Translations under genes and position numbers: made by a program
Virus record (IMG/VR): IMGVR_UViG_2864804954_000001
Span: 1 to 46,192 of that record
Length of the DNA: 46,192 nt
Origin: a virus
Taxonomy: Duplodnaviria > Heunggongvirae > Uroviricota > Caudoviricetes
Strand: one strand, 5' to 3'
Notes under the pieces: generated by a model
What the model saw: only the letters and a program-made list of their open reading frames with translations
Told to the model about the DNA's origin: nothing
The model's database searches: none
Shown: positions 1-37,620 of the stretch, piece by piece
Layout of the letters: each line of letters begins with the position of its first letter
Numbering within the stretch: the first letter of the stretch is position 1

Positions 1-1797
1 TCCCTCAACGGTATCCTTCAGGTGACGAGACAGTGAGCCGCGACCTGTGCCGGACTGAGCGTGAGGACAACCGTCGGAAAGTACGATCATGATCTTGCCT
101 TTCTCCTTACGCATACGCAGGCGACGGTGAGCAATGTCAATACATTCTCCATCGACGTTGTTGCGGAGAAAGCTCACGTTAGGCAACCATGCGAAGCGTT
201 GGCGTGTCTCAGTGTTAATACGCTCCTCATAGCCTTTCACGATAGGCATGTAGAGTGATTCATAGCGCGAGTATTTAACGCCGTACTTTCGCTCTTGTTC
301 TTCCATGCGTGAACCGTCGTGGACGTCGCCAGTCGTAAAGCAGATCACCTCATGATTGATACTGAGGCGGTCGAGTACCTGTGAGAGCGCATAGGCTGCT
401 GCTGCTGCGGTGTGAATCTTACCGCCAGTCATTGACCCTGATGCATCGACAACAAGTGATACCGCAACGTCGTTGGTGATGTTCTGACGCTTCTGACGGA
501 ACACGCGGTCGTCGCCTGCACTCAGACGAGCAAGCGCTGACGGATTCATGCGACCTTTGCGCAAGCCGCCTTCCCATGAAGCAATAGACTTTGCTCGCAT
601 GGCACGTTCAAGGTCTTTTGAGATTGGACCAACCATCGCGTCCACTTTCTCGTTCATGTTCACGACCATTCTGGGACTGAAACCTGAGCCGACGTGCAAC
701 TTCTCCACTTTGTCGTGTTCGTTTGTATATACGAGATACGGTGTACCTTTGGCAGCGAGCGCAGCTTGTTCGCCCATCTTGCGCGAAATGGCAGCGTCGT
801 AGTTGTTGGCAGTGTTTTTGTCGATCGCACCCAAGATTGCACCGCCATCTAGGTTTGAAACTTCATCATCGGTTTGCTTGTGGCTCATTTCGCCTGATTT
901 AGCTTTGCCCTTACCTTTTTTACCTTCGTCTTTGCCTTCACCTGAGCTGTCACCTTCGCCTTCGCCTTTAGCTTCGCTTTTGCTCTTGCCTTCGTCTTCA
1001 CCTTCACCATCTTCTTTGGCTGCGCCTGGTGCAGAACCTTCGCCTTCATTTTCGCCTTCGTCGTCTGCGCTGCCGCCTGATGCACCTGCACCTGAACCAC
1101 CGCCACTTTCAGATTCTTCTTCGTTGTCGTCATTTTCATCTTCGTCGGGCGCAGGCGGCTCCTCATCTTTAATGCGCTTGATGATGGTTTGCGCCATGTT
1201 GATCACTTCTTTGGTTGAGCTGAGAGCTTCAATCTGTGGCTGCAAGTCTTTGATCTTGTCGTAGAAGTTTTGAACATGGTGCATCTTGTCATCCATATAC
1301 GCTTGGAAGCGATGCTGACCTGACATGCCGCGCAACAATGGCGTTGCTAACAGTCCAACCATTTCTTCTTCGGAAGCGCCCGCTTTGACTGCCTTTTTAA
1401 TTTCAGGCTCAATCATGTTCTCAAGGAAAAAGTCTGCGGTATTACCCAAGTTTGTACCTGAACCGCGATATTTGTTTGCCATCGCTTTTTCAATACGCGC
1501 ATCTTCGAGAATGTTAAACAGCTGGTGCAAGTCTTTGTCTTTGATCTTCATAGACTGTTTAAAGTCGGTAAACAGGATGTGCGCAACTTCGTGATCGAGA
1601 AAGCCTTGAATAGCGTCAATTAGCGCGTCGTCTGCGTTGTCTGGGAGGTATGGTAGATTAACCTGAACTGGCTTGCCTGACGCGTCATTGCGCACCCATG
1701 CTTCGATACCTGACTGCGTTACTTGAACATCTGCGCCTGAGAGTGTTTGTGTGACCGTTGCGATCGCTTGGCGCATAATTGCTATACGTTCGTTCAT
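1..1797 (-). CDS. CobT-like protein: N-terminal HExxH domain, acidic linker, C-terminal vWA domain (3' end runs off the window)
   Basis: Hand translation from ATG at 1797 (MNERIAIMRQAIATVTQTLSGADVQV...) is open to position 1. It contains DHEVAHILFTD (HExxH), a D/E/G-rich linker at ~880-1170 and the MIDAS motif VVDASGSM at ~430-455. Absent from the ORF track because no stop codon lies in the window. Confidence 0.85.
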   Translation of the reverse strand, partial: MNERIAIMRQAIATVTQTLSGADVQVTQSGIEAWVRNDASGKPVQVNLPYLPDNADDALIDAIQGFLDHEVAHILFTDFKQSMKIKDKDLHQLFNILEDARIEKAMANKYRGSGTNLGNTADFFLENMIEPEIKKAVKAGASEEEMVGLLATPLLRGMSGQHRFQAYMDDKMHHVQNFYDKIKDLQPQIEALSSTKEVINMAQTIIKRIKDEEPPAPDEDENDDNEEESESGGGSGAGASGGSADDEGENEGEGSAPGAAKEDGEGEDEGKSKSEAKGEGEGDSSGEGKDEGKKGKGKAKSGEMSHKQTDDEVSNLDGGAILGAIDKNTANNYDAAISRKMGEQAALAAKGTPYLVYTNEHDKVEKLHVGSGFSPRMVVNMNEKVDAMVGPISKDLERAMRAKSIASWEGGLRKGRMNPSALARLSAGDDRVFRQKRQNITNDVAVSLVVDASGSMTGGKIHTAAAAAYALSQVLDRLSINHEVICFTTGDVHDGSRMEEQERKYGVKYSRYESLYMPIVKGYEERINTETRQRFAWLPNVSFLRNNVDGECIDIAHRRLRMRKEKGKIMIVLSDGCPHAQSGTGRGSLSRHLKDTVEG

Positions 1798-1836
1798 ATT
1801 CAACTTCCTTCGAGTGAAAATTAATACCAAAAATTA

Positions 1837-3456: not shown

Positions 3457-4035
3457 ATGATTAAGAGTGGCAAAGCTCCATACGTGCCGCCCGAGGATTT
3501 GGAACTCACAGTTGGAAAGTTGAAGGGTCCAAACATGCGACGAAACAGGGTGGTGTTGTACTTCTCGCATTACCTCGGGTTACGCGCAAAAGAATTGGCG
3601 GCACTCAAGTTGTCAGACGTTTACGATCACAAGCGCAGTAAGGTCAAAGAAGCCATTCGATTATTGGCCGCATATACCAAAGGTCAGAAGTTTAGGGAGG
3701 TTTATCTCGTCAACGAACAGGCGATCGACTATCTCAAAGCCTATCTGTATGCCGAACGCTGTGGTAGTTCGCCTGAATCTCCGCTGTTCATGTCTCAAAA
3801 AGGCGGTCACTTCAATAACAAGTCGATGGCTCGAATGATCAACACTCTTTACAAGCAAGCAGGGGTGAACGCGAGTTCTCACTCTGGGCGACGCTCATTT
3901 GCGACACACTTGATCCGCAAGAATGTAGACATTCATTCTGTGCAGCAGTTGATGGGGCATAGCTCGATTCAAACAACCCAAGAATATTTCGCTACAGACC
4001 CGAACAAACTCAGGGATGCAATGGGCAAGTTATAA
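3457..4035 (+). CDS. Short tyrosine recombinase (catalytic domain only, 192 aa)
   Basis: GLRAKEL (R), SSHSGRRSFAT (HxxR), MGHSSIQTTQEY (H, Y). ATG at 3457 preferred over the TTG at 3382. Confidence 0.9.
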   Translation: MIKSGKAPYVPPEDLELTVGKLKGPNMRRNRVVLYFSHYLGLRAKELAALKLSDVYDHKRSKVKEAIRLLAAYTKGQKFREVYLVNEQAIDYLKAYLYAERCGSSPESPLFMSQKGGHFNNKSMARMINTLYKQAGVNASSHSGRRSFATHLIRKNVDIHSVQQLMGHSSIQTTQEYFATDPNKLRDAMGKL

Positions 4036-4069
4036 ATATGGCAATATGGGAATATTCCTTGCCATATTT
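4034..4069. promoter_or_regulatory. Inverted repeat upstream of parA (candidate centromere/operator)
   Basis: AAATATGGCAA-N14-TTGCCATATTT; further TTGCCA-type half sites at ~4102 and ~4150. Confidence 0.45.
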
Positions 4070-4173
4070 CCATGTACTCATCAGGTCACTTTTAAATGCC
4101 GTTGCCAAACTATGCAGCCTATATTACACTCATGCTTTCACTGGTGCATTTGCCAATATTAGAAGGATAAAAA

Positions 4174-4824
4174 ATGTTAATACTAATCGCTAACTCGAAA
4201 GGCGGTTCACACAAGACCTCACTTGCAACTTCAATTCTTGCGGAACTCTCTAAACACCACGCAGTAGTCGGCATTGACCTTGACCCTGTAAATAAGTCAG
4301 CGTCCAAATGGAGCGTCTCTCGCGATGAAACGCAGGGGAAATTCTACGAACTTACTGGAGACATTAAGGACGAACTGGCGCGTGTACGCGACGATTATGA
4401 CCATGTTATCGTGGACGCTGGCGGTTTCGATAACATTGAAATTCGTACTGCAATGGCTCTAGCTGACGTGGTTTTAATCCCACTTAAAGTCGGTTCTTTG
4501 GATAATATTGAGGGTTTCCGCAACATCGTTGATCTCGTCTATGAGTTCCAACCAGTTAAAGAAAAGCCTGCAAAAGTGTTTGGCGTTGTCGTTGGTGCGA
4601 AGGGTGTTGGCGGTGGCGCAGAAATTCAACGTGCGCTTGCTGAGATTGCCGACTATGACGCTGTTAAGCCACTGAAAACCTCAATCGCTGATCGCATTTG
4701 GTATGGGCGTGCCATAGATGCAAAAGTCGGTCTGACTGAATATGTAAGTCCTGACCCAAAAGACTTCCGTTTAGTTGAAATGGCCAAAAAAGAATTTTTA
4801 GCAATGCTTGAGGAGATTATGTAA
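4174..4824 (+). CDS. parA: ParA-family partition ATPase (short, type Ib-like)
   Basis: N-terminal ANSKGGSHKTS deviant Walker A, IDLDP, VIVDAGG Walker B, ADVVLIP; no N-terminal HTH. Confidence 0.88.
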   Translation: MLILIANSKGGSHKTSLATSILAELSKHHAVVGIDLDPVNKSASKWSVSRDETQGKFYELTGDIKDELARVRDDYDHVIVDAGGFDNIEIRTAMALADVVLIPLKVGSLDNIEGFRNIVDLVYEFQPVKEKPAKVFGVVVGAKGVGGGAEIQRALAEIADYDAVKPLKTSIADRIWYGRAIDAKVGLTEYVSPDPKDFRLVEMAKKEFLAMLEEIM

Positions 4825-5979: not shown

Positions 5980-6624
5980 TTAAGCCACTTTTTTGATGCT
6001 TGCCTTGAAATTAATGCTGGACGGCAACTCATTCATGCGCGTGACGTGATCATGGATGATGGCCGAAACCTGTTGAATTTCTTCAGGACGGTCTCCTGAC
6101 ATATCAAAAAAGATGTCAAAGTGAGTGCCGCGCTTGGCCTCGTCCACCCACCCCTTCTCCATTTCGATGTAGCTGACCACCTTGTCAATGTACTCCGCAT
6201 TGCTTAGGCTATTTTCATCACGCTCCTTGATTAGACGCGCCAGGATCGTCATCATGTCTCCGTCGATAAAACTCATCAAGTGCGGCATCTTGTTCGCGAT
6301 CAAGTATTTGCGGAGCTTCTTTGCACCATTAGGGCTGAGTGTGACAACTGAGTTCACATTACCTTCGATGGCTTCGAGCAATTCAGCGAAAGACAAACCG
6401 TATTGCTCGCCAAAGAAGGTTTCGGTTTCAAGGTATTTACCGCTTTCTTTGGCCTTGTTAAACGTCTCATGGTCGAGAAAGTAATAAGTGTACCCTTCAA
6501 CTTCGTTGTTCATGCGTTTGCGTGTGGTGCTTGTCACGATCTTGGTGTAGCCGCGCAAAACTAAATCATCTGCAATCTGACGTTTGCCCGAGCGCGTTTG
6601 TCCTGAAAGTATTACTAATGCCAT
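5980..6624 (-). CDS. Guanylate-kinase-like nucleotide kinase (214 aa)
   Basis: VILSGQTRSGK P-loop and IVTSTTRKRMNNEVEGYTYYFLD, matching the GMPK TTRxxRxxExxGxxYxF signature. ATG at 6624. Confidence 0.8.
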   Translation of the reverse strand: MALVILSGQTRSGKRQIADDLVLRGYTKIVTSTTRKRMNNEVEGYTYYFLDHETFNKAKESGKYLETETFFGEQYGLSFAELLEAIEGNVNSVVTLSPNGAKKLRKYLIANKMPHLMSFIDGDMMTILARLIKERDENSLSNAEYIDKVVSYIEMEKGWVDEAKRGTHFDIFFDMSGDRPEEIQQVSAIIHDHVTRMNELPSSINFKASIKKVA

Positions 6625-6698
6625 TTTATTTGTCCCTAATTGGTTTGGTGCAATAAAGAATGCCGACCATTTCGAGATAGTCGGCATTTCAATTTCTA

Positions 6699-7085
6699 TC
6701 AGCAGTAACGTCGATAAACTTGGCGATCAGCCGAGTAACGACTATTGCGCAAGGTGTCACATTCGACATCGTCATCACGGCGGTGTGAACCGTAGTATGG
6801 TCTTGGCTTTGTTGCGCTGTTCGCTACAACTGGCTTTTTCACCGTTGAGATCGGTCGCGGTGCAACTGGCTTAACCACTGTTGGCGTTGTACGTGCAATC
6901 GAAGATGTTGTACGAGTTACCGATGGGCGTGAACTGCTAAAGCTGCTCGACGAACGGCTAACACTTACGCTACTGCGGCCACCGCTGAACCCTGCATGTG
7001 CTTGTTGCAATGACAGAGCAATGATTGCTCCTGCGGTACACATTGCCAGTACCGCTGCAATCACCACATCTTTAATGTTGATCAT
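6699..7085 (-). CDS. Exported or membrane-anchored S/R/T/P-rich low-complexity protein
   Basis: Hydrophobic N-terminus ending in QAHA, then GFSGGRSSVSVSRSSSSFSSSRPS; start overlaps the ligase stop. Confidence 0.6.
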   Translation of the reverse strand: MINIKDVVIAAVLAMCTAGAIIALSLQQAHAGFSGGRSSVSVSRSSSSFSSSRPSVTRTTSSIARTTPTVVKPVAPRPISTVKKPVVANSATKPRPYYGSHRRDDDVECDTLRNSRYSADRQVYRRYC

Positions 7086-8452
7086 GCCGCTTTCCCAGTG
7101 ATGATGTTGTCAAATTGCGCTTGAATGCGCTCCAAACTGTCTGCTTCGTCTTTGTCTGTGCGGTACACATCTTCTGCAAGGCGAGGTAAAAACAAGCTGT
7201 AATCGTCATTTGATGCACTTGGACTAAGCAACTGATTAAACACGACCGTTACAATTTTACCATTCCAGTCTGCACGATCTTTTTCAATCGCCTTGCGCAT
7301 CTTTTCATTCTTGACCGCAACATCAACTTTCAATTTGCCACACGCAGATCGGCAACGTAACGCTCCCGGCAAGCCTTCGTTCTTACTGCCAATCTTGCCG
7401 TCCGCAATGTCGTAGATTTCCAACTCACACGGCGCTTCGATCTTGAGCTTCACTTGATCTTTAGATGTGCCATCTTTCCAAATCATGTCAGGACGTTTAA
7501 TTACAGTGCCCTCTTTACCTTGCTTGGTAAGACTGAAAAAGTGATCGTATGCGGCAGCGAGTGACGTCACCACCTTCGTTTCGATCATGCGAATGTGAGT
7601 GGTGTTCTTGGTTGTGTCGCGAATATCCTTCAGACGATTCAAGTAAGGCGTGTTGTACTGCCCTTTCGCTTTCACCGCAGTGATTGGAATTAAGTCCCAA
7701 ATCAAGTAAATCGGACGCTCACCTTCGCCAAACTTGCCACCTTTAAGAACTGAGTTCAGAATGCCGTTACTGACTTCACGCGCCAAAATTTCGCCATCAC
7801 GTTCAACCATTAGCTCACCGTGATACTGGAAGTTTTCACGGAGCTTGACCTTTGCTTCTTCAATCAGATCGCCAAACTCATCCATAGGGAATGGTGAGCC
7901 TTGACGCGAAGCGAAGAACAATGTGCCTTTGATGCGGTTGCCATTTGCGAACATACTGTCGGCTTTCTCTTGTGAGATAATACCTTTCGACCAGTCCCAT
8001 TCTTCGATCTTCGCTTCTTTTGGCAAAGAGCAGCGCTGATAAGGGAAAACGGGGATTAAGTCCTTACATGCTTTGTTGATGGTTGATTCGCTGAAGCCTG
8101 CACGTAGGTCTTTACGCAAGATACGAATCAATAGCTCTGCTGAATCCTTGCTGAGTGTACGCAACTGTTTCTCAAGTGCGTCTTTGGCTGCGTTACCTGT
8201 GAGTTTGCGATCAATCAGGTCTTGCAGGAACTCATGCGTACCGTTTTCATCAAAGAACAATTCGCCTGGCTCAATTTCTTCGTGCGCTTTGGTTGGCCGA
8301 ATGCCAAAGATCATAAAAGGGTCGTATGCGAGTTTGCACACCGCCTTAAATTCATCATTTGCCGCAAAGTTCGTAACGAGTGCCTGCTTGTCATTCTTTG
8401 ACGATTTTTCGGCTACTTCGTTAAGTGCGAGTAATATGTCTTTACTGTTCAT
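7082..8452 (-). CDS. ATP-dependent DNA ligase
   Basis: Ligase motifs in order: EKADS (I), HGELMV (III), IWDLIP (IIIa), EGTVIK (IV), KLKI (V), LFLPR...RTDK (VI). N-terminal ILRKDLRAGFSESTINK as in T4-like ligases. Confidence 0.9.
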   Translation of the reverse strand: MNSKDILLALNEVAEKSSKNDKQALVTNFAANDEFKAVCKLAYDPFMIFGIRPTKAHEEIEPGELFFDENGTHEFLQDLIDRKLTGNAAKDALEKQLRTLSKDSAELLIRILRKDLRAGFSESTINKACKDLIPVFPYQRCSLPKEAKIEEWDWSKGIISQEKADSMFANGNRIKGTLFFASRQGSPFPMDEFGDLIEEAKVKLRENFQYHGELMVERDGEILAREVSNGILNSVLKGGKFGEGERPIYLIWDLIPITAVKAKGQYNTPYLNRLKDIRDTTKNTTHIRMIETKVVTSLAAAYDHFFSLTKQGKEGTVIKRPDMIWKDGTSKDQVKLKIEAPCELEIYDIADGKIGSKNEGLPGALRCRSACGKLKVDVAVKNEKMRKAIEKDRADWNGKIVTVVFNQLLSPSASNDDYSLFLPRLAEDVYRTDKDEADSLERIQAQFDNIITGKAA

Positions 8453-8463
8453 GGATATACCCT

Positions 8464-9114
8464 TTAGTTGGCTACTGCTTGCTGTTTACGACGTTTCGCG
8501 ATTTCGAGGAGCGACATGCCCGTCGTGTCAAAAGTCACCGCTGACTTTTCATTTTGTGATGATACTGTATTCGCTGTGGAAGTTGAAGCATTTGCACTGG
8601 TTGTCTTTTCTTCTGTTGGTTCTTTCGCCAACTCACGCATACGCTTGTTGATGGCGTCTGCAACGGTTGGTGTTGATTTAAATTCTGGAGCATGTGCAAT
8701 GCCTTTTGGCACAAGTCTGCTTTCGTCAACTGCTTTTGGAGAAGCTAGGGTGCGACCGACATTACTTTGGCGACCAAGTTTAAGGCCCATCGCTTCTGCA
8801 TTTTCGATTTGATTTTCTCGGAGCTTCTTGCGGTTCACGTAGTAGATTGCGCGTCCCGCTTGTTCTTCTTCCTTGCGCATACCGATGACCATGCAAGCCG
8901 AACCACTTGCGATAGCCGCCCCACAAGCCGCTTCGTTTGTATCTAAACTTCCTGCTTTGCGGTCTTCGATACGACGCAAGCATGATGCGTAATTGGGACG
9001 GTAGCCTGCTGCGCCGCAGTAGTCGCAGTAATACGCGTTAGTGCCTAATGCAGATTGTTCTATTGGGTAGACTTCTTCGTCTTTAAACTCGACTAAGCGA
9101 ATGTTACGTGCCAT
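8464..9114 (-). CDS. Hypothetical protein with Cys-rich N-terminal domain (216 aa)
   Basis: YYCDYCG...ASC...AC...AC; low-complexity T/S/A C-terminal half. ATG at 9114 follows the repeated leader. Confidence 0.7.
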   Translation of the reverse strand: MARNIRLVEFKDEEVYPIEQSALGTNAYYCDYCGAAGYRPNYASCLRRIEDRKAGSLDTNEAACGAAIASGSACMVIGMRKEEEQAGRAIYYVNRKKLRENQIENAEAMGLKLGRQSNVGRTLASPKAVDESRLVPKGIAHAPEFKSTPTVADAINKRMRELAKEPTEEKTTSANASTSTANTVSSQNEKSAVTFDTTGMSLLEIAKRRKQQAVAN

Positions 9115-9140
9115 GTGATGTACCTTTTTGATTGATGCTT
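9112..9140 (-). repeat. 29-bp conserved 5' leader, copy 1
   Basis: AAGCATCAATCAAAAAGGTACATCACATG; 28/29 identical to 11410-11438; both end in a start codon. Confidence 0.85.
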
Positions 9141-9213
9141 CGTTTCGATAAAGCAATGATATAGTGCTGATGTAGGGTTAGAAGCGTGTTTGTAACTAAC
9201 CCTAGTGTTTGCC

Positions 9214-9711
9214 CTACCATGTCGCCCAATTGTCGTACTGGGGCTTTGGTTGCGCAGGAATGTTGGTAACAACACCAGGCGTAGTGCCGTTGAGGTTGAA
9301 ATGCTTGGTAAGTGTCGGCAATGCCAAACTGCCATCATTACGCATCTCTAACCGCTTGTTCTTTTGTAGCGCGTAGATGAATCCATACACTTGAGATGCC
9401 TCAAGTTCGGCAGAGTAATTGCCTGCGTCCACAAGTTGCGAAATCAGATCCAAGAAACCAATTCCTCGATCTTTGAGTTGATGAATCCGCTGATTGCCGT
9501 TCTCTAGGCAAGTCTCATTGAGTTCGTCAATTTGCTTGGCGTAACTGTTCATGTCTGCACCGCTGTAGGTATTAACCCACACCGTTGATCTTTCGCTATT
9601 CATAGACAGCACTGCCGAATTGAAGTTGCCTTCAGCACCCGCCTCAATACCGACTACACTGAAAAAGCCTGTTAGTGTTTTGTAGGTGCTCTGTGTAAAT
9701 GTGAAGCTCAT
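9214..9711 (-). CDS. Hypothetical protein with WGxW-type C-terminal tail (..QYDNWATW)
   Basis: 165 aa from ATG at 9711, ATGA-coupled to the upstream gene. Confidence 0.75.
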   Translation of the reverse strand: MSFTFTQSTYKTLTGFFSVVGIEAGAEGNFNSAVLSMNSERSTVWVNTYSGADMNSYAKQIDELNETCLENGNQRIHQLKDRGIGFLDLISQLVDAGNYSAELEASQVYGFIYALQKNKRLEMRNDGSLALPTLTKHFNLNGTTPGVVTNIPAQPKPQYDNWATW

Positions 9712-10277
9712 TGCCACGTCCCCCATTGTGCGTATTGATTTGTCTTTGGAGCTTCCTCAATCTTTGTTCCCGTTAGTGCGCCAAACAGCTTGAAGCGTTG
9801 CTTTTGGTGTTCGCCATCATGCTGAATGCCAAGACTGTCTAACCAACGATTCAAGCCTTGAAGTGAAATCGTTGGTTGTTGTGCATTGCAGAAATTCATA
9901 ATGCGCGTGTCGGTCTGCATCAAACATCTGACATCGCCATTGTTGTCCTTGTAGGGGATGTGGCGCATGTAGACGTCGGACGGCGTGGCGACATATCCTG
10001 TATCTTCAGCGTAATCTAAGACTTTTTGGTAGCCTTTCAACAGGCGATCGTTTTCGCCAGGCTGCTTAATGTTATAAGCATCGGCACCAATCTCTATCTC
10101 CCCATGTCGATTCTCAACGCCAAGGTCAATGCTGATGCCAATTGCGACAGAGATGCCATTGTTTCGATTGCTTACAATGACAGCAATGGCACGCTCTCCT
10201 TCATTAGCGGAATTGGTATGAACGCCATCAAAACTGGCTGTAACCGTCAATACGGTCGGAGGAAGGTGCTCAATCAC
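9708..10277 (-). CDS. Hypothetical protein with WGxW-type tail (..QYAQWGTWQ)
   Basis: 189 aa from GTG at 10277 (GTGA overlap with the upstream stop). Confidence 0.75.
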   Translation of the reverse strand: MIEHLPPTVLTVTASFDGVHTNSANEGERAIAVIVSNRNNGISVAIGISIDLGVENRHGEIEIGADAYNIKQPGENDRLLKGYQKVLDYAEDTGYVATPSDVYMRHIPYKDNNGDVRCLMQTDTRIMNFCNAQQPTISLQGLNRWLDSLGIQHDGEHQKQRFKLFGALTGTKIEEAPKTNQYAQWGTWQ

Positions 10278-10882
10278 CACGCACCCCACTGATTGTTATA
10301 GGTCAAGTCAACTTCCTTGTACTTTTCACCACCCTGTAAGAAGTCCACGATGAAATGTGCATTACGACCGAGACATGCGTACATGGCTTCGCCCATGCCG
10401 TTTGCAGCCTCTAGCCATTGATTGCCTTTGTAGTGCGACAAGCCCATATCAAAGTCGCGCTTGCAGTATTCGCCATTCATCACCTTTTTGCGGAACTCGA
10501 TCATTTCGCCTTGATTGAAATTCACGAATCCATCTTCGTCGGTGCTGTATAGAATATTGATCGCTTTTGGCTCTTTGCCGTTACTTGTTGCCCATGTCAC
10601 ATCAATAAATACAGATCGGAGCGATTTAGTGGCTTGAATGGCTATACCCGCATGAATCTCTTTTAAGTCGTCGGTCATGCCGTTGAAGTGTGCAACAAAC
10701 AATGCCGTGTGACCTTCTGGACTTAGATCAACCATTTCGCCATTTACTTCGTCAATCTCCTTGTAGAGATCGACAAGGTCGCTGTCGTTCGTTGCTGACA
10801 CATCCTCTGTAATGTCGTCTTCGTCGGAGAACAGCGCGTCTAAGTCTTTGTCTGACAGCATGTAGCTTTTTGTAGTCATCAT
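10274..10882 (-). CDS. Hypothetical protein, acidic N-terminus, WGxW-type tail (..YNNQWGAW)
   Basis: 202 aa from ATG at 10882 (ATGA overlap). Confidence 0.75.
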   Translation of the reverse strand: MMTTKSYMLSDKDLDALFSDEDDITEDVSATNDSDLVDLYKEIDEVNGEMVDLSPEGHTALFVAHFNGMTDDLKEIHAGIAIQATKSLRSVFIDVTWATSNGKEPKAINILYSTDEDGFVNFNQGEMIEFRKKVMNGEYCKRDFDMGLSHYKGNQWLEAANGMGEAMYACLGRNAHFIVDFLQGGEKYKEVDLTYNNQWGAW

Positions 10883-11412
10883 GCCCACATTCCCCATGAC
10901 GATTGGTAGGCATTTGCACGTTCTTCATCGAGAGCTGCCATGCGGTTCTTTTCTTCTTCCGCCTCTTTAATGTCGGCTTCTGATGGTTCGACTGAATTAT
11001 GCCAACCACCTAACAGCATGATCTGCTCGACAACCGATGAGCCTAAGTCTTTACGAATGATCGAAAGCGCCTCTTTGTCTTTAAGTTTGTCATTGCCAAA
11101 AACATGCGCGTTAAGCTGACCAGGCTGTCCGAGCATCATCTTTGAATTTGAAAGACGGCGCGTATAACCTTTCTTTTCCTTTTCGTTGATCTTCTTCTGT
11201 GCCTCTGAATAGACTGTTGAATTGTTAATTCCGTGAGACCAAGAAATCTGACCTGTTTTTCCAATAGGGCCATATTGCGTCATCATGGATGCAATCTTGG
11301 TTGTTTTGTTCGCCACGACCATGATGCGATAGAACTTGTTGGAAGAACCCTCTGTGCATTCGAGATAGTATTGGGTTATCTCTACGCTGTGTTTGCCTGT
11401 GATTTCTGTCAT
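10879..11412 (-). CDS. WGR-domain protein with WGxW-type tail (..AYQSSWGMWA)
   Basis: YLECTEGSSNKFYRI...QYGPIGKTGQ...AQKKINEKEKKGY matches the WGR domain pattern. Confidence 0.75.
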   Translation of the reverse strand: MTEITGKHSVEITQYYLECTEGSSNKFYRIMVVANKTTKIASMMTQYGPIGKTGQISWSHGINNSTVYSEAQKKINEKEKKGYTRRLSNSKMMLGQPGQLNAHVFGNDKLKDKEALSIIRKDLGSSVVEQIMLLGGWHNSVEPSEADIKEAEEEKNRMAALDEERANAYQSSWGMWA

Positions 11413-11438
11413 GTGATGTACCTTTTTGCTTGATGCTT
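11410..11438 (-). repeat. 29-bp conserved 5' leader, copy 2
   Basis: AAGCATCAAGCAAAAAGGTACATCACATG. Confidence 0.85.
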
Positions 11439-11490
11439 AATTGTGAATGACGAATATTGGAAAGTAGCGTTTCGGGGCTACCTGATCTGT

Positions 11491-12072
11491 TTAGCCGAAC
11501 AATGCCCACTGTGCGTATTGCGGCTCTTGTTTTGGTGTCGGCTTTGTGACATTTGAAAAGATCGGCTTTCGCTCAAGTCTCCTCATGATGACATCTAGCT
11601 CTGTCATAATGTCTTTACCTACCGAATCTCCAAATTTGCGAAGGAGCATGTTTTCGGCGCGCTGTGCGTCGCCAATAGCTCTCAAAGGAAAATGAACACC
11701 ATTTACGTTGAATGGTGCATCCGCGTGTATGAAGTAGTGCTTCATATTTTCAAACATGCGGCTCTTGTATAGATCGCATTTAAACGTCGTGGAGATAAAT
11801 AAGCTCATAGATCGCATTTCGCGAACACCTTTGCTTTCCAGGCTATTTGGCGTAATGTCAAAAACCTCAGAACAGTGATGAACCCAATCATCTTCTTCGA
11901 TGTATCCGTCATCCGACACGAAGTCACTCAATGCGGTGCGTACTCCTCTAACTCCGCCAAGTAGAGGGTGGTAATCAGTTTTGTCATACAACTCAACCAC
12001 GAACGCCTCAGCAAGCATGTCGTGGTTTTTATTTTCCGTAATCTGAGAACGAACAATTAATTCCAAACTCAT
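11491..12072 (-). CDS. Hypothetical protein with WGxW-like tail (..QYAQWALFG)
   Basis: 193 aa from ATG at 12072 (ATGA overlap). Confidence 0.75.
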   Translation of the reverse strand: MSLELIVRSQITENKNHDMLAEAFVVELYDKTDYHPLLGGVRGVRTALSDFVSDDGYIEEDDWVHHCSEVFDITPNSLESKGVREMRSMSLFISTTFKCDLYKSRMFENMKHYFIHADAPFNVNGVHFPLRAIGDAQRAENMLLRKFGDSVGKDIMTELDVIMRRLERKPIFSNVTKPTPKQEPQYAQWALFG

Positions 12073-12659
12073 GCCCACATCCCCCACGCTGCTCCGTATT
12101 CGCGCCGCTGTGCCTCACCAGGCATTTTTGGCATTTGTGATTGCGGCTCGACAACACGAAGACTCGTTGCTGGCAGTTCTTCAAATTGCTGCTGAAAGAA
12201 GTTCAGGACTTCTATCGCTCTGCGTTTACCTAGCGACTCCACCAATGTAATTTGAAGATTCCTAAAACATTCCCGATCGACGACGTCATCGAATTTGCAC
12301 TCATTGCCAAATGGTGTCTTTGTCTCGTTGCGCGTCGTTACACAAAGATGATTCATTCTGCCTACATCATCGATACCGTAGTCATTGACGAGCTTGGCCG
12401 TCTCCTTGTTGCACAAGTGAGTAATGCGCTGGCGGGAAACGCTGTCGTGCTTTGTCGTGTTGATATATTGCCAATCTTCATATTCAAGGATGTACTTATC
12501 CTCGTCGTCATACTGGAAGCACTGAATCTCAGCCTTTCGCGTCAGGATGATTGCTGACAGGCTAGAGCGTTGACCGCCTCGCATGTCGATGGAGATCGTC
12601 TCGAAAATATGCGTCTCGTTTTTAAATACACTTGAGCTATAAACCGCTTGAATGCCCAT
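12069..12659 (-). CDS. Hypothetical protein with WGxW-type tail (..EYGAAWGMWA)
   Basis: 196 aa; start overlaps the primase stop (TAATG). Confidence 0.75.
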   Translation of the reverse strand: MGIQAVYSSSVFKNETHIFETISIDMRGGQRSSLSAIILTRKAEIQCFQYDDEDKYILEYEDWQYINTTKHDSVSRQRITHLCNKETAKLVNDYGIDDVGRMNHLCVTTRNETKTPFGNECKFDDVVDRECFRNLQITLVESLGKRRAIEVLNFFQQQFEELPATSLRVVEPQSQMPKMPGEAQRREYGAAWGMWA

Positions 12660-13753
12660 TACATGAGTTCCATTTTTAATTTAATTGCTGATGTAGTATT
12701 TATAACTCGCGCATTGAGGAAAGCATCGCGAACTACTTGGGCATCTACTTCATTCGGGTCTTTATCCTTCGGTAGCCTTGCAAGTCGCGCGACAAAGCCA
12801 ACACCATGCAACATCAATGCGGCATCCACTGCGTCATTCAGCGCCACCTTCTCGCCATCCCACATGATTGTGATGCGCTTCAAGCCTGCATCTTTCATCT
12901 TGAGCAGCTGTGCCAACTGAGAACTTTCGTCGCCATGCGACAGATGCTTACCGAATGAACCGATTGCTGCCACGTTGCACAAGGCGTCGTCTTCTTGAAA
13001 CGCCTGGTGAATTGCCATGACGTCGAACACACCTTCGCCCATGCACGCGTCTTTATAGCCAAACGCATTATGGCCATTAAAAATAATTGAGCCTGTAGAC
13101 GCAAAACCGTTAGGGAATAAGTATTTCTTTTCCGATGTGCCAGTGATGTCACGACCTTGATAGGACACAAGATTGCCGTCCAGATCGTAGATAGGAATAA
13201 TGATTCGACTGCTGAAATTTTGTAACTTGCGTTCCCCTTCATGGTCGATGTATTCAAACCACCCCTTTTGACAGTAGCGCAAGCCAAAATCTTTCGTCGT
13301 GTCGTTTGTAATACCGCGCTCTTGGAGGTACTTGAGATTGCGACCGCCCACAGGTAACACCATTGACTTAGGCATTTTTAGTGCACCACGCTCTGCAGGC
13401 TTGTACTCACTACGCTTTACGGTGAAGCCTTGTTCTTCTGCGATAGCTTTGATGTGATCCACGATCTCGCGATTGTTCAGATCGCCCAATGATGCTTTGA
13501 TGAATGACCACTTTGAGAACTTAGCCTCACAGTCACCGTGAAAGCAGTTACCCAAGCCAGTCTCTTGCCCCATGTAGACCTTCCAATTGCTGTTACCGCA
13601 CACTGGACATTCGCGAATATTCAACTGAACACCGCGAGAACCACGTGCAACCTTGTACTCGACCGCCTCACGGTTGAGCCAATACTCCATGTCGATCTTG
13701 TCGAGTATTTCGCCAATCTCTGAATTATCGCGTTTGGTGACTGAGGTGGACAT
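12659..13753 (-). CDS. DNA primase (Zn-ribbon + TOPRIM)
   Basis: CPVCG...NCFHGDC zinc finger; YLQERGI, RIIIPIYDLDGNLVSYQGRDI, MGEGVFDV, MWDGE, KDKDPNE. Confidence 0.9.
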   Translation of the reverse strand: MSTSVTKRDNSEIGEILDKIDMEYWLNREAVEYKVARGSRGVQLNIRECPVCGNSNWKVYMGQETGLGNCFHGDCEAKFSKWSFIKASLGDLNNREIVDHIKAIAEEQGFTVKRSEYKPAERGALKMPKSMVLPVGGRNLKYLQERGITNDTTKDFGLRYCQKGWFEYIDHEGERKLQNFSSRIIIPIYDLDGNLVSYQGRDITGTSEKKYLFPNGFASTGSIIFNGHNAFGYKDACMGEGVFDVMAIHQAFQEDDALCNVAAIGSFGKHLSHGDESSQLAQLLKMKDAGLKRITIMWDGEKVALNDAVDAALMLHGVGFVARLARLPKDKDPNEVDAQVVRDAFLNARVINTTSAIKLKMELM

Positions 13754-13908: not shown

Positions 13909-14541
13909 TCAAATTGCTGGAAATGCAATGTTCAATCGTCGCATCTTCACTTTACATGCCGTGAGGAACTTACTTCGCGATGACCATGCAAGGTTGTCGA
14001 GGTTGGCGTTGTTACGGTCGCCATCTAGGTGCTCAACCAAATCAAGACCAAACATGATGGTTGGACCCTTCGGTGTGAGGTAGATGTCCTGCATATACTG
14101 TGGCATCTCAGAGAATGCTTGCAGAACCAAATGAGACACGCGACACGACACATAGCCATCTTTTGACTTTGATTGGCGACACATGCGATTTGGCAAGTAA
14201 ACTACCGCTGATTTGCCTTTGCAATTGACGTGGTTTTGCTTGCGCTCCTCCCATGCGCCATTCACATTTACTTCAACCTTTGTGCCTGTGCGGTTTACGC
14301 GTAAAACGATGCCATACACATAGGTTTCGCGAAATTCGTCGTCCGCGACTGGCAATGGAGTTATAACTTCAAACCCACCATCAGTCGCTTCAGGCTTTCC
14401 CGCAAAATGTTCCGCTGCTTGTTCGGCTGTTGTGATGCCGATTTCCGACAAAGCTTTTTCAACAAAGTGCTTCTTTACCACCTCTGCCGCTTCTACTTTT
14501 GCTTCGGCTTTGATTTGCGCAAGTTCTTCTGGACTAAACAT
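13909..14541 (-). CDS. HNH-endonuclease-like protein
   Basis: RVSHLVLQAF...VEHLDGDRNNANLDNLAWS resembles the phage HNH_3 pattern (VHRLVAxAF...HxDGxxxNNxxxNLxW). Confidence 0.6.
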   Translation of the reverse strand: MFSPEELAQIKAEAKVEAAEVVKKHFVEKALSEIGITTAEQAAEHFAGKPEATDGGFEVITPLPVADDEFRETYVYGIVLRVNRTGTKVEVNVNGAWEERKQNHVNCKGKSAVVYLPNRMCRQSKSKDGYVSCRVSHLVLQAFSEMPQYMQDIYLTPKGPTIMFGLDLVEHLDGDRNNANLDNLAWSSRSKFLTACKVKMRRLNIAFPAI

Positions 14542-35851: not shown

Positions 35852-36591
35852 TTACTTTCATGCCTTAAGTGTCGAATGGTGTGCTTTGTCCAGTAGCCAC
35901 CATAAATGTCAATTTGAGATAGTCGTCCTTGTACGTGATGCAGAATTTTGTCATCACCCACGTAGACGGCTACGTGACTAGCTTTGCCAGTTGCGTCGGT
36001 TTGAAACATAAAGACGTCGCCGTCCTTTGGTTCGCCCTGAACTTCAATCAAGCCCTCATTGCTGAAGCAAGAATCGAAGAAATCTGAGCCATCTTTGCGC
36101 CAAAACCCATCGATACGCGGATAGTCATTACTCATCCGTATACCGTGGGTTCGCTCAAGGTAATCAACAACCAAAGTCCAACAGTCGAATGTTCCGAAGA
36201 TGTATGGGCGACCTACGAATGGCGCTTTATAACCTGACGGCTCAAATACCACCATTGGTGAGTATTCAAAGCAGTCTGTGCGCTTGTAGACGTTCAGCAA
36301 AAGCCAAGTCACGCCACTTGCTTCACAGCCTGCCAAGTCTGCTTCTGTTGGCTCGATGTTTCCGTTTGTGTGGGTGTGCCACACGGCGAGAATCTCTCCC
36401 TGTTCTTCGGCTTCGATGTAAGCTTCAGGGTTAATTAGGAAAAATTCACGCGGGTTTGCTGCTTCGTTTTTCACTTCAATCGCAACGGATTTCTTTCCTT
36501 TGGAAATGATGAAGCCGCAAGCTTCGTTTGGATAACTTGCGGCGCCTGCATTACGAATGAAAGCTTCTACTTCACGGTTATTGATTGCCAC
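35845..36591 (-). CDS. Tail assembly protein K (JAB/MPN + NlpC/P60)
   Basis: YPNEACG...WHTHT...EADL (JAB) and GRPYIFGTFDCW...HVAVYVGD..ILHH (NlpC/P60). GTG at 36591 has a GGAG RBS. Confidence 0.9.
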   Translation of the reverse strand: MAINNREVEAFIRNAGAASYPNEACGFIISKGKKSVAIEVKNEAANPREFFLINPEAYIEAEEQGEILAVWHTHTNGNIEPTEADLAGCEASGVTWLLLNVYKRTDCFEYSPMVVFEPSGYKAPFVGRPYIFGTFDCWTLVVDYLERTHGIRMSNDYPRIDGFWRKDGSDFFDSCFSNEGLIEVQGEPKDGDVFMFQTDATGKASHVAVYVGDDKILHHVQGRLSQIDIYGGYWTKHTIRHLRHESKC

Positions 36592-37282
36592 GATCTGCTC
36601 CAGGGAATCCGCCATAGGTCAAATCAGCATCAACGCCTTGTCGTGCAGTGCATGAACTTAAGCGCTTAGGACAACAGTCTTTGTTGATGTCCGTGGTTGG
36701 TTGGTCGTTGAGGTCATAGAAGCCGCCCGTGTAACCACATTCAGAACTTCTATAACGCCAAGGGCATGTGTTCTTAATGATCTGACGGTAAGGCAACTGA
36801 ATGCCATCTAAGTCAAATGCTGATGCCAACTCCCATTCAACGGTGTTGCGGTTTTCAGCAGTCTTGCGATCAACAAACCACAGCTGATCAGGAAGGTATT
36901 GGTCGGGATTCGCTTCGGGGTTTCCGCCGATGAAGTTCACTTCATCCAAGTAGCGAGCAAATGTCTGCTTGCGAGTTACTTTGGCGTTAATGAGATCGTC
37001 CATTTCGACGGCCATTGCTGAGAACAAACCTCCAATATTCGCTACGCGAATTTTTGGACGAGGAAGCGTTCCTTGCGCTGTGATGTCGAAGCCTTCCGCT
37101 TCAATTGGAATTGCTTGATAAGTTTCACCTTGCCAAACAATGTCTTTGTAGCCTTGCGCTGTTCCTGAGTGAAAGCGCATCAGTGTTCCCTTTTCAATGT
37201 GACTGGTATCAATGACAAACATTTCTACCAATGCAGTCGGGGACAATGATTGCACCTCCGACTGAATAGGAATTTTCTCCAT
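36578..37282 (-). CDS. Minor tail protein L (gpL-like)
   Basis: WQGETYQAIPIEAEGF, PRPKIRVANI, C-terminal CPWRYRSSECGY...CPKRLSSC...YGGFPG Cys cluster. Confidence 0.92.
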   Translation of the reverse strand: MEKIPIQSEVQSLSPTALVEMFVIDTSHIEKGTLMRFHSGTAQGYKDIVWQGETYQAIPIEAEGFDITAQGTLPRPKIRVANIGGLFSAMAVEMDDLINAKVTRKQTFARYLDEVNFIGGNPEANPDQYLPDQLWFVDRKTAENRNTVEWELASAFDLDGIQLPYRQIIKNTCPWRYRSSECGYTGGFYDLNDQPTTDINKDCCPKRLSSCTARQGVDADLTYGGFPGADRGNQ

Positions 37283-37620
37283 TAACTCCCTCTTTCAAAC
37301 ACTTGCTCGAATGCGCCTGTAATCTCAAACACACCGAAATTCTTTTGCCGACTTTTCCATGATCGACAAACGTAAATGCCCTCCTCTCCCTCGGGGTCTA
37401 CCCAAGCAAACGCTTTTGAAGCGCCTTGTTTCTTGAGAAAATTACGAATCTCCTTATGTCTAAGGAGCGGTGAGGTAAAGCTGACTGACCACTTTGAGGG
37501 CTGATCATTGATGCCAACAGGAAGTCGGCTCTCGTACCCATCTCCGAACTTAGTTACCTTAACGAGAGGAGCTTCCTCTCGTTCGGCACCCAAGTCGGGA
37601 GACCATTGGAATTTATCCAT
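37282..37620 (-). CDS. Minor tail protein M (gpM-like)
   Basis: FQWSPD...KFGDGYESR..GIN...FAWVDP...FEQVF; ATG at 37620. Confidence 0.88.
   Translation of the reverse strand: MDKFQWSPDLGAEREEAPLVKVTKFGDGYESRLPVGINDQPSKWSVSFTSPLLRHKEIRNFLKKQGASKAFAWVDPEGEEGIYVCRSWKSRQKNFGVFEITGAFEQVFERGS

Follow-up and report, generated by a model that had tools for sequence, protein, structure and literature searches.

The list of described hub-and-tail systems is short and comprises the tip of the bacterial single-stranded DNA-binding protein (SSB), clamp-binding motifs and the acidic tails of phage T7. In phage T4, unrelated proteins bind the sliding clamp through their C-terminal tails. PARP enzymes recognise DNA nicks and 5'-phosphate ends by means of the WGR fold. 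In bacteria, fusions of an ATP-dependent ligase with a WGR domain also exist (PMC7470946). The present analysis deals with six consecutive minus-strand genes, t1 to t6, at positions 9214-12659 of IMG/VR record IMGVR_UViG_2864804954_000001 (hereafter G000), a complete virus record of 111,054 bp with terminal repeats whose first 46 kb (46,192 nucleotides) constitute the window. An earlier reading of the window (the original prediction) had proposed that the six proteins share a terminal Y-x(2-3)-W-[GA]-x-[WF] tag acting as a docking or address code that recruits a cargo set to one hub. Our results showed that this tail is selected as a peptide and that it marks a wider set of genes in SSU5-type phages and phage-plasmids. 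We assign a probability of roughly 60% to the view that it is a short linear C-terminal docking peptide tying its cargo to one receptor in replication or recombination.

The tailed array and its motif

All six open reading frames (ORFs) displayed the predicted endings, and their lengths fell within the proposed 165-202 aa once starts were set at the ATGA or GTGA overlaps. The first gene, t1 (12069-12659, 196 aa), overlaps the primase stop codon with its start and ends in ..REYGAAWGMWA. It is followed by t2 (11491-12072, ORF to 12087; 193 aa from the ATGA overlap; ..QYAQWALFG), for which no Pfam or PHROG match was found, and by t3 (10879-11412, 177 aa, ..AYQSSWGMWA), composed of a WGR domain (Pfam PF05406), a helical part and a long C-terminal helix. 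Then come t4 (10274-10882, ORF to 10897; 202 aa from the ATGA overlap), with an acidic N-terminus and a ..TYNNQWGAW end, the ORFan cassette t5 (9708-10277, ORF to 10289; 189 aa from the GTGA overlap; ..QYAQWGTWQ) and t6 (9214-9711, ORF to 9726; 165 aa from the ATGA overlap), whose ..QYDNWATW end precedes a TAG stop.

As had been claimed, four of the six junctions are coupled by overlapping starts (ATGA for t1-t2, t3-t4 and t5-t6, GTGA for t4-t5), and there the tail codons double as G-rich Shine-Dalgarno sequence and start overlap. The two remaining tails have no coupled downstream gene and are followed by gaps of 78 nt (t2) and 57 nt (t6). The optional last residue at coupled junctions (A, Q or S) corresponds to the codon that makes the ATG in GCATGA, CAATGA and TCATGA, so DNA-level coupling shapes only this residue. 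No prominent promoter- or terminator-like sites were observed within the array.

A chance origin of the tails is excluded. The strict pattern matched seven of the 149 G000 genes, for 0.001 expected from 2000 shuffles, and a looser pattern matched 11, for 0.2 expected in shuffles. With looser tails included, G000 carries at least 15 tailed genes, about nine of which lie outside the window. They include, from looser scans, a gene at 69482-69817, followed by a terminator hairpin, genes at 71196-71627, 90748-91572 and 92415-92987 as well as a second coupled array of five tailed genes (97487-99717) displaying ..FGAW(S) and ..TWAAW ends.

To judge from its position, the tail needs a free C-terminus to work. 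The aromatic-[GA]-x-aromatic motif was 65-fold enriched where it lay no more than two residues from the chain end (11 observed, 0.17 expected), and internally it occurred at background level (15 observed, 12.8 expected). A set of 85 unique tails was assembled from 75 IMG/VR relatives, SSU5 and nickie (GenBank), three further complete genomes and G000. The chain ended exactly on the aromatic residue (W/F) in 70 of them, with one more residue in 15 and never with two. The consensus reads Tyr, two to four residues, aromatic-Gly/Ala-x-Trp/Phe, then at most one residue. The 12 residues preceding the motif displayed a net charge of -1.4 versus 0.0 in controls (Glu 18%, Pro 9%). Residues 173-196 of t1, which include its tail, are disordered in the AlphaFold2 (AF2) model, and t3 has a helix at that place. 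The tail usually sits on an acidic Pro/Glu-rich linker or on a long helix, and its location at the extreme C-terminus of otherwise dissimilar proteins is the one that a docking or address peptide, as initially proposed, would have.

The last two aromatic-motif positions were found to co-vary, with 63 tails combining a small residue (S/A/T) with W, 17 a large or other residue with F, three a small residue with F and two a large one with W (85 unique tails, Fisher P 6e-13 without phylogeny correction). Such covariation is expected for one pocket. It was also observed inside one lineage, where t2 ends in WALFG among five W-ending neighbours, and close t1 orthologues swap the endings WGMWA, WGAWA, WALFG and WGDFS. 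Dissimilar proteins of one genome further displayed concerted variants, with WATW on both tailed proteins of SSU5, WASW on two of L043, FGRF on three of L072, WGIF with WGEF in L068, and LGSW with QGSW in the L008 type. A tail-like end, ..AYQTGALEWE, was also noted in the small subunit of the G000 ribonucleotide reductase (83050-84141, i.e. L083:7050-8141, minus strand) and was left uncounted; we take it to be the usual R2 tail binding the large subunit.

Selection, distribution and cargo of the tail

The tail is selected as a peptide and not as a ribosome-binding or DNA signal. Its Gly codon uses all four third bases (GGA 23, GGC 18, GGT 16, GGG 16). Two dissimilar proteins of one genome both end in WGSW, with Ser encoded by AGC in one and by TCT in the other (L032, L041 and L056); this mixture within a genome excludes both recent gene conversion and a pure DNA signal. 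Four G000 tails without a coupled downstream gene retain the motif (e.g. 69482-69817). All 12 full-length representatives of the WGR clusters, 24-50% identical, end in Y-x3-[WF]-[GA]-x-W(A), and other WGR proteins from the same search lack such a tail. Of the columns lying outside the WGR core in an alignment of 33 sequences (mean identity 22%), W173, G174 and W176 alone were near-invariant. Distant homologues of three further cargo proteins also retain a tail. Codon usage, both Ser codon families, uncoupled genes and WGR orthologues thus agree with the original proposal that selection acts on the peptide. Two observations had been named in advance as speaking against it, namely free loss of the tag in homologues and conserved synonymous sites. 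Both were looked for; all 12 full-length WGR orthologues turned out to be tailed, the Gly wobble position was free and Ser drew on both of its codon families, so tail retention and codon data point the other way.

Outside G000, the motif search suggested at the outset showed that the tail recurs in phages and phage-plasmids of the SSU5 type. About 65 of the 75 IMG/VR relatives display one to four tailed genes directly after the primase gene, the recurrent first one coding for a WGR protein ending in ..RG-x-x-WGSW. A second recurrent position lies between sbcC and ruvC, where tailed genes were found in G000 (92415-92987, ..YTQEGSW), G005 (..YEGFGSW), G001 (..NEIFGLF), G002 (..GYGDFS) and SSU5 (SSU5_076, ..PTWATW). 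SSU5 possesses just two tailed genes, located after primase and between sbcC and ruvC, and this pair therefore looks like the minimal set, which is expanded in G000 to at least 15. The tailed set, whose membership changes quickly, consists of small proteins encoded in replication and recombination modules of these elements, and its conserved core is formed by the WGR protein after primase and the protein between sbcC and ruvC. One relative, G003 (66 kb, incomplete), displayed neither tails nor a gene between sbcC and ruvC. It retains helicase, primase, ligase, CobS, DnaE, gp32-like SSB, FEN, RecA, SbcCD, RuvC and DnaQ, and also has a 581-aa gene in the position of CobT.

The array itself was found to be variable. 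Close relatives, whose genes are about 80-95% identical, possess t1, t2, the WGR gene, t4 and t6 and lack t5, L127 and L128 passing straight from t4 to t6. Their t4-t6 junction, CAG TGG GGC GCA TGG CAA TGA GCT, combines the left half of the G000 t4 tail with the right half of the t5 tail, and the breakpoints around t5 fall in two TGG-GGN-NCN-TGG tail repeats. This hybrid junction implies that t5 was gained or lost by crossover between two tail-coding repeats. In addition, t4 has different N-terminal 35 aa in close relatives, and t2 is a pseudogene in L127, where a tail Trp codon changed from TGG to TAG in addition to a deletion.

As to the cargo, the original prediction that one array member is a WGR protein was borne out by t3, which matched Pfam WGR (PF05406) with an E-value of 6.8e-14 and 52 bits for a cut-off of 22. 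Its AF2 model (predicted local distance difference test, pLDDT, 93.2) displayed a WGR domain with its four-stranded sheet packed against a helix, then a short helical part and finally a long helix ending in the tail. Foldseek retrieved 2ra8 and the DNA-bound PARP2 WGR domain (6f5f) with E-values of 6e-4 to 8e-4 and a probability of 1.0, the best structural matches being the WGR domains of PARP2, PARP1 and PARP3 on DNA breaks. Given these matches and the known WGR-ligase fusions, a role of t3 in sensing nicks or 5'-phosphate ends together with the neighbouring ligase may reasonably be inferred.

The six bodies had been described as unrelated. With tails trimmed, no pairwise similarity was indeed detected (blastp, hhalign), but the statement was too strong for at least t1 and t3. 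Comparison of the t1 and WGR families by hhalign gave a probability of 77% and an E-value of 2e-5 over 56 columns, which correspond to two C-terminal helices, the linker and the tail. Strands and helices follow one another in the t1 model (pLDDT 72.7, the other four models being lower) as they do in t3, and PARP1 and PARP3 WGR domains came first, if weakly (Z 4.6), among 48,161 chains (VIA). No Pfam match was found for t1, and a Foldseek search with its model gave nothing significant. A t1 orthologue occurs directly after primase in an Acinetobacter metagenome-assembled genome (MAG), where it ends in ..YANWGDFS. On these profile and model comparisons, t1 is probably a diverged WGR-like paralogue. 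No relative of t4 was found in IMG/VR, the sole relative found for t5 was one near-identical fragment, and neither has relatives beyond near-identical copies. Pfam and PHROG searches with about 25 tailed proteins yielded WGR and families of "unknown function" only.

G000 is read as an Acinetobacter phage-plasmid because of four features. Salmonella phage SSU5, Pseudomonas phage nickie and Rhizobium phage RHEph10 have similar replication genes, their primases being 38-45% identical to that of G000; a Rep3-family plasmid initiator (17874-18710, minus strand) adjoins the lytic replication genes; its nearest DNA matches in the plasmid collection are 127 Acinetobacter plasmids, those listed being about 110-133 kb long and mostly from A. 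baumannii; and a helicase fragment in an Acinetobacter MAG is 89% identical to the helicase of the window. Megablast against GenBank phages gave no match.

Around the array, the expected order was recovered, with primase on one side and ligase on the other, and with one additional gene intervening before ligase. The primase (12659-13753, minus strand; Pfam/PHROG) is of the DnaG type without the C-terminal helicase-binding domain; in relatives, too, tailed genes begin right after it. The intervening gene (8464-9156, minus strand) codes for a four-Cys protein (phrog_4558), and the ATP-dependent DNA ligase (Pfam/PHROG) lies at 7082-8452 on the same strand. Downstream of ligase is a guanylate-kinase-like gene (5980-6687, minus strand), and an HNH-endonuclease-like gene (13909-14541, minus strand) lies between helicase and primase. 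In the close relatives L125, L127 and L128, primase is immediately preceded by an extra NUMOD4/HNH gene (at about 3500-4800), which varies in length from 332 to 428 aa. Both kinds of genes are probably mobile homing-endonuclease insertions.

Proposed explanation, rivals and receptor candidates

If the tail is a docking peptide, its two aromatic side chains would occupy one and the same hydrophobic pocket on a single receptor, beside a site reading the chain end, in a mode resembling that of SSB tips, T7 gp2.5 and gp4 tails and clamp-binding tails. It would thereby attach ORFan accessory proteins, as well as sensors of nicks or ends, to the machinery of replication and repair. The tail DNA (TGG GGN NNN TGG plus stop) at the same time provides the ribosome-binding site and overlapping-start junction, and is the in-frame crossover point where genes enter or leave the array. 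In a broader version, SSU5-type phages and phage-plasmids, including large A. baumannii plasmids, would use an undescribed C-terminal code, Y-x3-aromatic-G-x-W/F-COOH, to recruit WGR-derived sensors and a changing set of ORFans to one receptor, with the tail DNA as coupling signal and recombination joint, and new cargo would therefore slot in as ready-addressed cassettes. We consider the chances of this broader version to be about even.

Several observations weigh against the docking peptide. Most relatives have more acidic tails than G000 itself. The variant classes go largely with phylogeny, and neither the covariation nor the concerted variants are independent samples. The common ancestry of t1 and t3 probably extends beyond the tail (hhalign), so that part of the tail sharing in the array would reflect inheritance and not independent acquisition. 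Finally, since G003 keeps the core genes without tails, the tails are accessory and no dedicated phage receptor gene vanishes with them.

Four other explanations were considered. The least improbable of them, although unlikely, is that the tails are unusual clamp-binding motifs hanging accessory proteins on the host beta-sliding clamp used by the phage DnaE. The presence of a DnaE without a recognisable phage clamp fits this idea, as do the resemblance of QWALF(G) in t2 and of WGLF and FGLF in G001 and L070 to QL[SD]LF or to the Pol II tail QLGLF, the Q preceding the first aromatic in three of the six tails, and the T4 precedent mentioned above. Yet 63 of the 85 tails have S/A/T at position 4 and Trp at position 5, where the motif needs Leu and Phe/Leu, and no tails but t2 (QWALF) and the WG[LMI]F class approach it. 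Clamp motifs moreover work internally, contrary to a tail motif enriched only at the chain end; the phage DnaE possesses a canonical-looking internal Q-I-E-L-M-P motif unlike the tails; and tail classes vary strongly between lineages, whereas the clamp pocket is highly conserved. Ranked next, and likewise unlikely, is a substrate tag for the phage CobS/CobT pair (MoxR-type AAA+ plus VWA protein with a MIDAS, or metal ion-dependent adhesion site) or a degron for a host protease, by which early proteins could be remodelled or removed at a set time. A motif strictly dependent on the free C-terminus would suit such a tag, every relative examined has conserved CobS and CobT, with an intact DxSxS MIDAS in CobT, and in many relatives the WGR tail has the form R-G-[DE]-x-W-G-S-W. 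In CobST, the VWA/MIDAS sites are turned towards the client protein (10.64898/2026.10.09.757910), and the phage is devoid of the CobN client. However, tail-less G003 keeps CobS and the 581-aa gene in the CobT position, and the R-G-D/E feature is absent from G000 tails. To our knowledge, the tail is also unlike ssrA-, MuA- and SulA-type degrons.

A sorting or sticker signal is less probable still. The tail would then direct capsid packaging for co-injection, or its aromatic residues would act as stickers on acidic spacers, through which clients partition into a condensate of replication. Many of the cargo proteins are ORFans, as is typical of injected or anti-defence proteins, structural genes also belong to the conserved core, and Tyr/Trp stickers on a disordered acidic linker would suit clients of a condensate, SSB condensates being the background to this argument. 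Against this, tailed genes occur in replication and recombination operons and not in late ones, the conserved members are proteins of the DNA-nick or end type beside primase and SbcCD, and a strict chain end with pocket-like covariation fits a defined site better than weak multivalent contacts. The most improbable explanation dispenses with a receptor altogether, the tail being a by-product of tandem duplication of one WGR-tail gene and of a junction kept for coupling and cassette recombination. Use of the tail codons as Shine-Dalgarno sequence and start overlap at four of six junctions, the ATG made by the optional A/Q/S residue, the probable paralogy of t1 with WGR proteins and the gain or loss of t5 exactly between two tail repeats would all be accounted for. 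This view is largely refuted by the codon data, with free wobble positions and Ser in both codon families. Furthermore, uncoupled or isolated genes keep the tail (69482-69817 and 92415-92987 of G000, SSU5_076), the tail is the best-conserved part of proteins diverged to 20-30% identity, and the covariation of the -2 and -1 positions is a property of the peptide.

Returning to the docking peptide, the original prediction stood for the reality of a peptide-level tag, and part of its proposed hubs did not. An Hfq-like ring is unlikely, with no homologue of the Hfq-like protein in three tail-bearing relatives, and the acidic residues before the motif disfavour a membrane anchor and make the membrane interface an unlikely hub. 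The phrog_4558 protein was likewise rejected; it is absent from tail-bearing G001 and G002, and among the five relatives searched only G005 has it. As receptor, we tentatively place first a phage protein from core DNA metabolism (DnaE polymerase, gp32-like SSB, RecA, helicase or ligase); the host beta clamp follows as a doubtful candidate, and the CobS/CobT AAA+/VWA pair comes third as a more doubtful one. The gp32-like SSB, RecA, DnaE, helicase, primase, SbcCD and CobS/CobT occurred in all tail-bearing genomes examined. All four relatives searched for the gp32-like SSB have it, tail-less G003 among them; a ligase occurs in G001, G005 and G003 but not in G002. Since core candidates occur in tail-bearing genomes and, apart from CobT with its 581-aa positional counterpart, also in tail-less G003, presence or absence does not discriminate between them.

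A phage clamp was sought with the Pfam DnaN N- and C-terminal domains, which had no match in G000; the SSB profile had none either. The gp32-like SSB of G000 ends in ..DIFAELDAAG, unlike the tails. Two neighbours of DnaE were discarded as clamp candidates, namely a 366-aa protein beside it (no PDB sequence match, weak atlas leads only) and the 230-aa phrog_3616 protein upstream of it, which combines a Cys cluster with a helical part and is not clamp-like. The phrog_2500 protein upstream of helicase had no atlas match.

Positions invariant in four tail-bearing genomes and changed in G003 were also recorded. SbcD (G000 95236-96321 versus G003 36211-37290) stood out from the other better-populated proteins with 17 of 72, ten of them between residues 171 and 225, in a comparison that involves one lineage with SbcCD more divergent overall. 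Rates were 6-16% for RecA, primase, SbcC, helicase, CobS, FEN, RuvC and DnaE and 18% for DnaQ; those of phrog2500 and gp32 were higher, but over just 21 and 18 invariant positions. The changed SbcD residues may mark a contact with the protein missing between sbcC and ruvC. With a single lineage and divergent SbcCD, SbcD is therefore a lead for the partner of the body of this sbcC-adjacent protein and not for the tail receptor.

Some features of the candidate proteins deserve mention in their own right. DnaE (104518-107964, i.e. L082:4518-7964, minus strand) displays a conserved R-x-K-D-Q-x-E-L-[ML]-P motif followed by a C-terminal domain, which by eye resembles family-4 uracil-DNA glycosylases (..KFMVVTDCPTWEEEK..) and occupies the place of the tau-binding end of cellular DnaE. 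In G003 the gene is split into ORFs of 782 and 395 aa. The phrog_3616 gene (107982-108674, i.e. L082:7982-8674, minus strand) is conserved and coupled upstream of DnaE, and its product combines a helical C-terminal domain with an invariant P-x-C-x13-C-x2-C-x5-C motif, between whose first two Cys residues lies a further, near-invariant one. The CobT-like VWA protein (window 1-1830, minus strand, plus 110810-111049) spans the terminal repeat of the record and combines its MIDAS motif with a long acidic Gly/Glu/Asp-rich linker. CobS (109428-110678) and its homologues all end in ..QR[VI]FG.

Comparison with known systems

About one in ten genes of this 111-kb element is tailed and most of these lack an assigned function, so the receptor would offer a handle on a whole class of "dark" genes in a phage-plasmid family that is widespread in clinically important bacteria. 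The array also suggests a route for rapid evolution of accessory functions, in which insertion at a junction would supply address, ribosome-binding site and start codon together. The WGR protein beside primase and ligase points to PARP-like nick sensing in phage lagging-strand or repair metabolism. The original prediction knew of no such tag system, and we likewise found no published description of it in the searchable literature on the motif, on shared phage tails, on WGR proteins with primase and on phage-plasmid CobS/CobT. The tails would thus add a member to the short list of hub-and-tail systems.

Among these systems, the gp45-binding tails of T4 (gp43, gp33 and gp55), the beta-clamp motif QL[SD]LF and the PCNA-interacting peptide (PIP) box share with the present tails a short hydrophobic or aromatic peptide entering one hub, which in T4 is likewise C-terminal on unrelated proteins of one phage. 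Clamp motifs have the same i, i+3 spacing of two hydrophobic anchors, and the variants QWALF, WGLF and FGLF come close to QLGLF. In contrast, the tails usually read W-G-[SAT]-W, possess an extra upstream Tyr, are strictly terminal and occur in an element in which no phage clamp gene was found.

The bacterial SSB tip (..DDDIPF) and the T7 gp2.5 and gp4 tails resemble the present ones by an acidic flexible linker, an aromatic chain end that seems to be read and a replication or recombination context. Yet there one hub carries the tail and many clients carry pockets, whereas here many clients carry the tail. The tailed bodies are WGR proteins or ORFans instead of OB-fold SSBs, and the gp32-like SSB of the phage ends differently.

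With PARP1, PARP2 and PARP3 and with the WGR-fused bacterial ligases (PMC7470946), t3 shares the WGR fold, and it is encoded close to an ATP-dependent ligase gene, recorded as two genes away. Contrary to these enzymes, it lacks a PARP catalytic domain and is a protein separate from the ligase, displaying a helical extension and the tail instead. The internal-protein locus of T4 is likewise a polymorphic array of unrelated small genes with one short address peptide. There, however, the capsid-targeting signal is N-terminal and cleaved and the proteins are made late, whereas the shared element described here is C-terminal and the genes belong to a primase-ligase operon.

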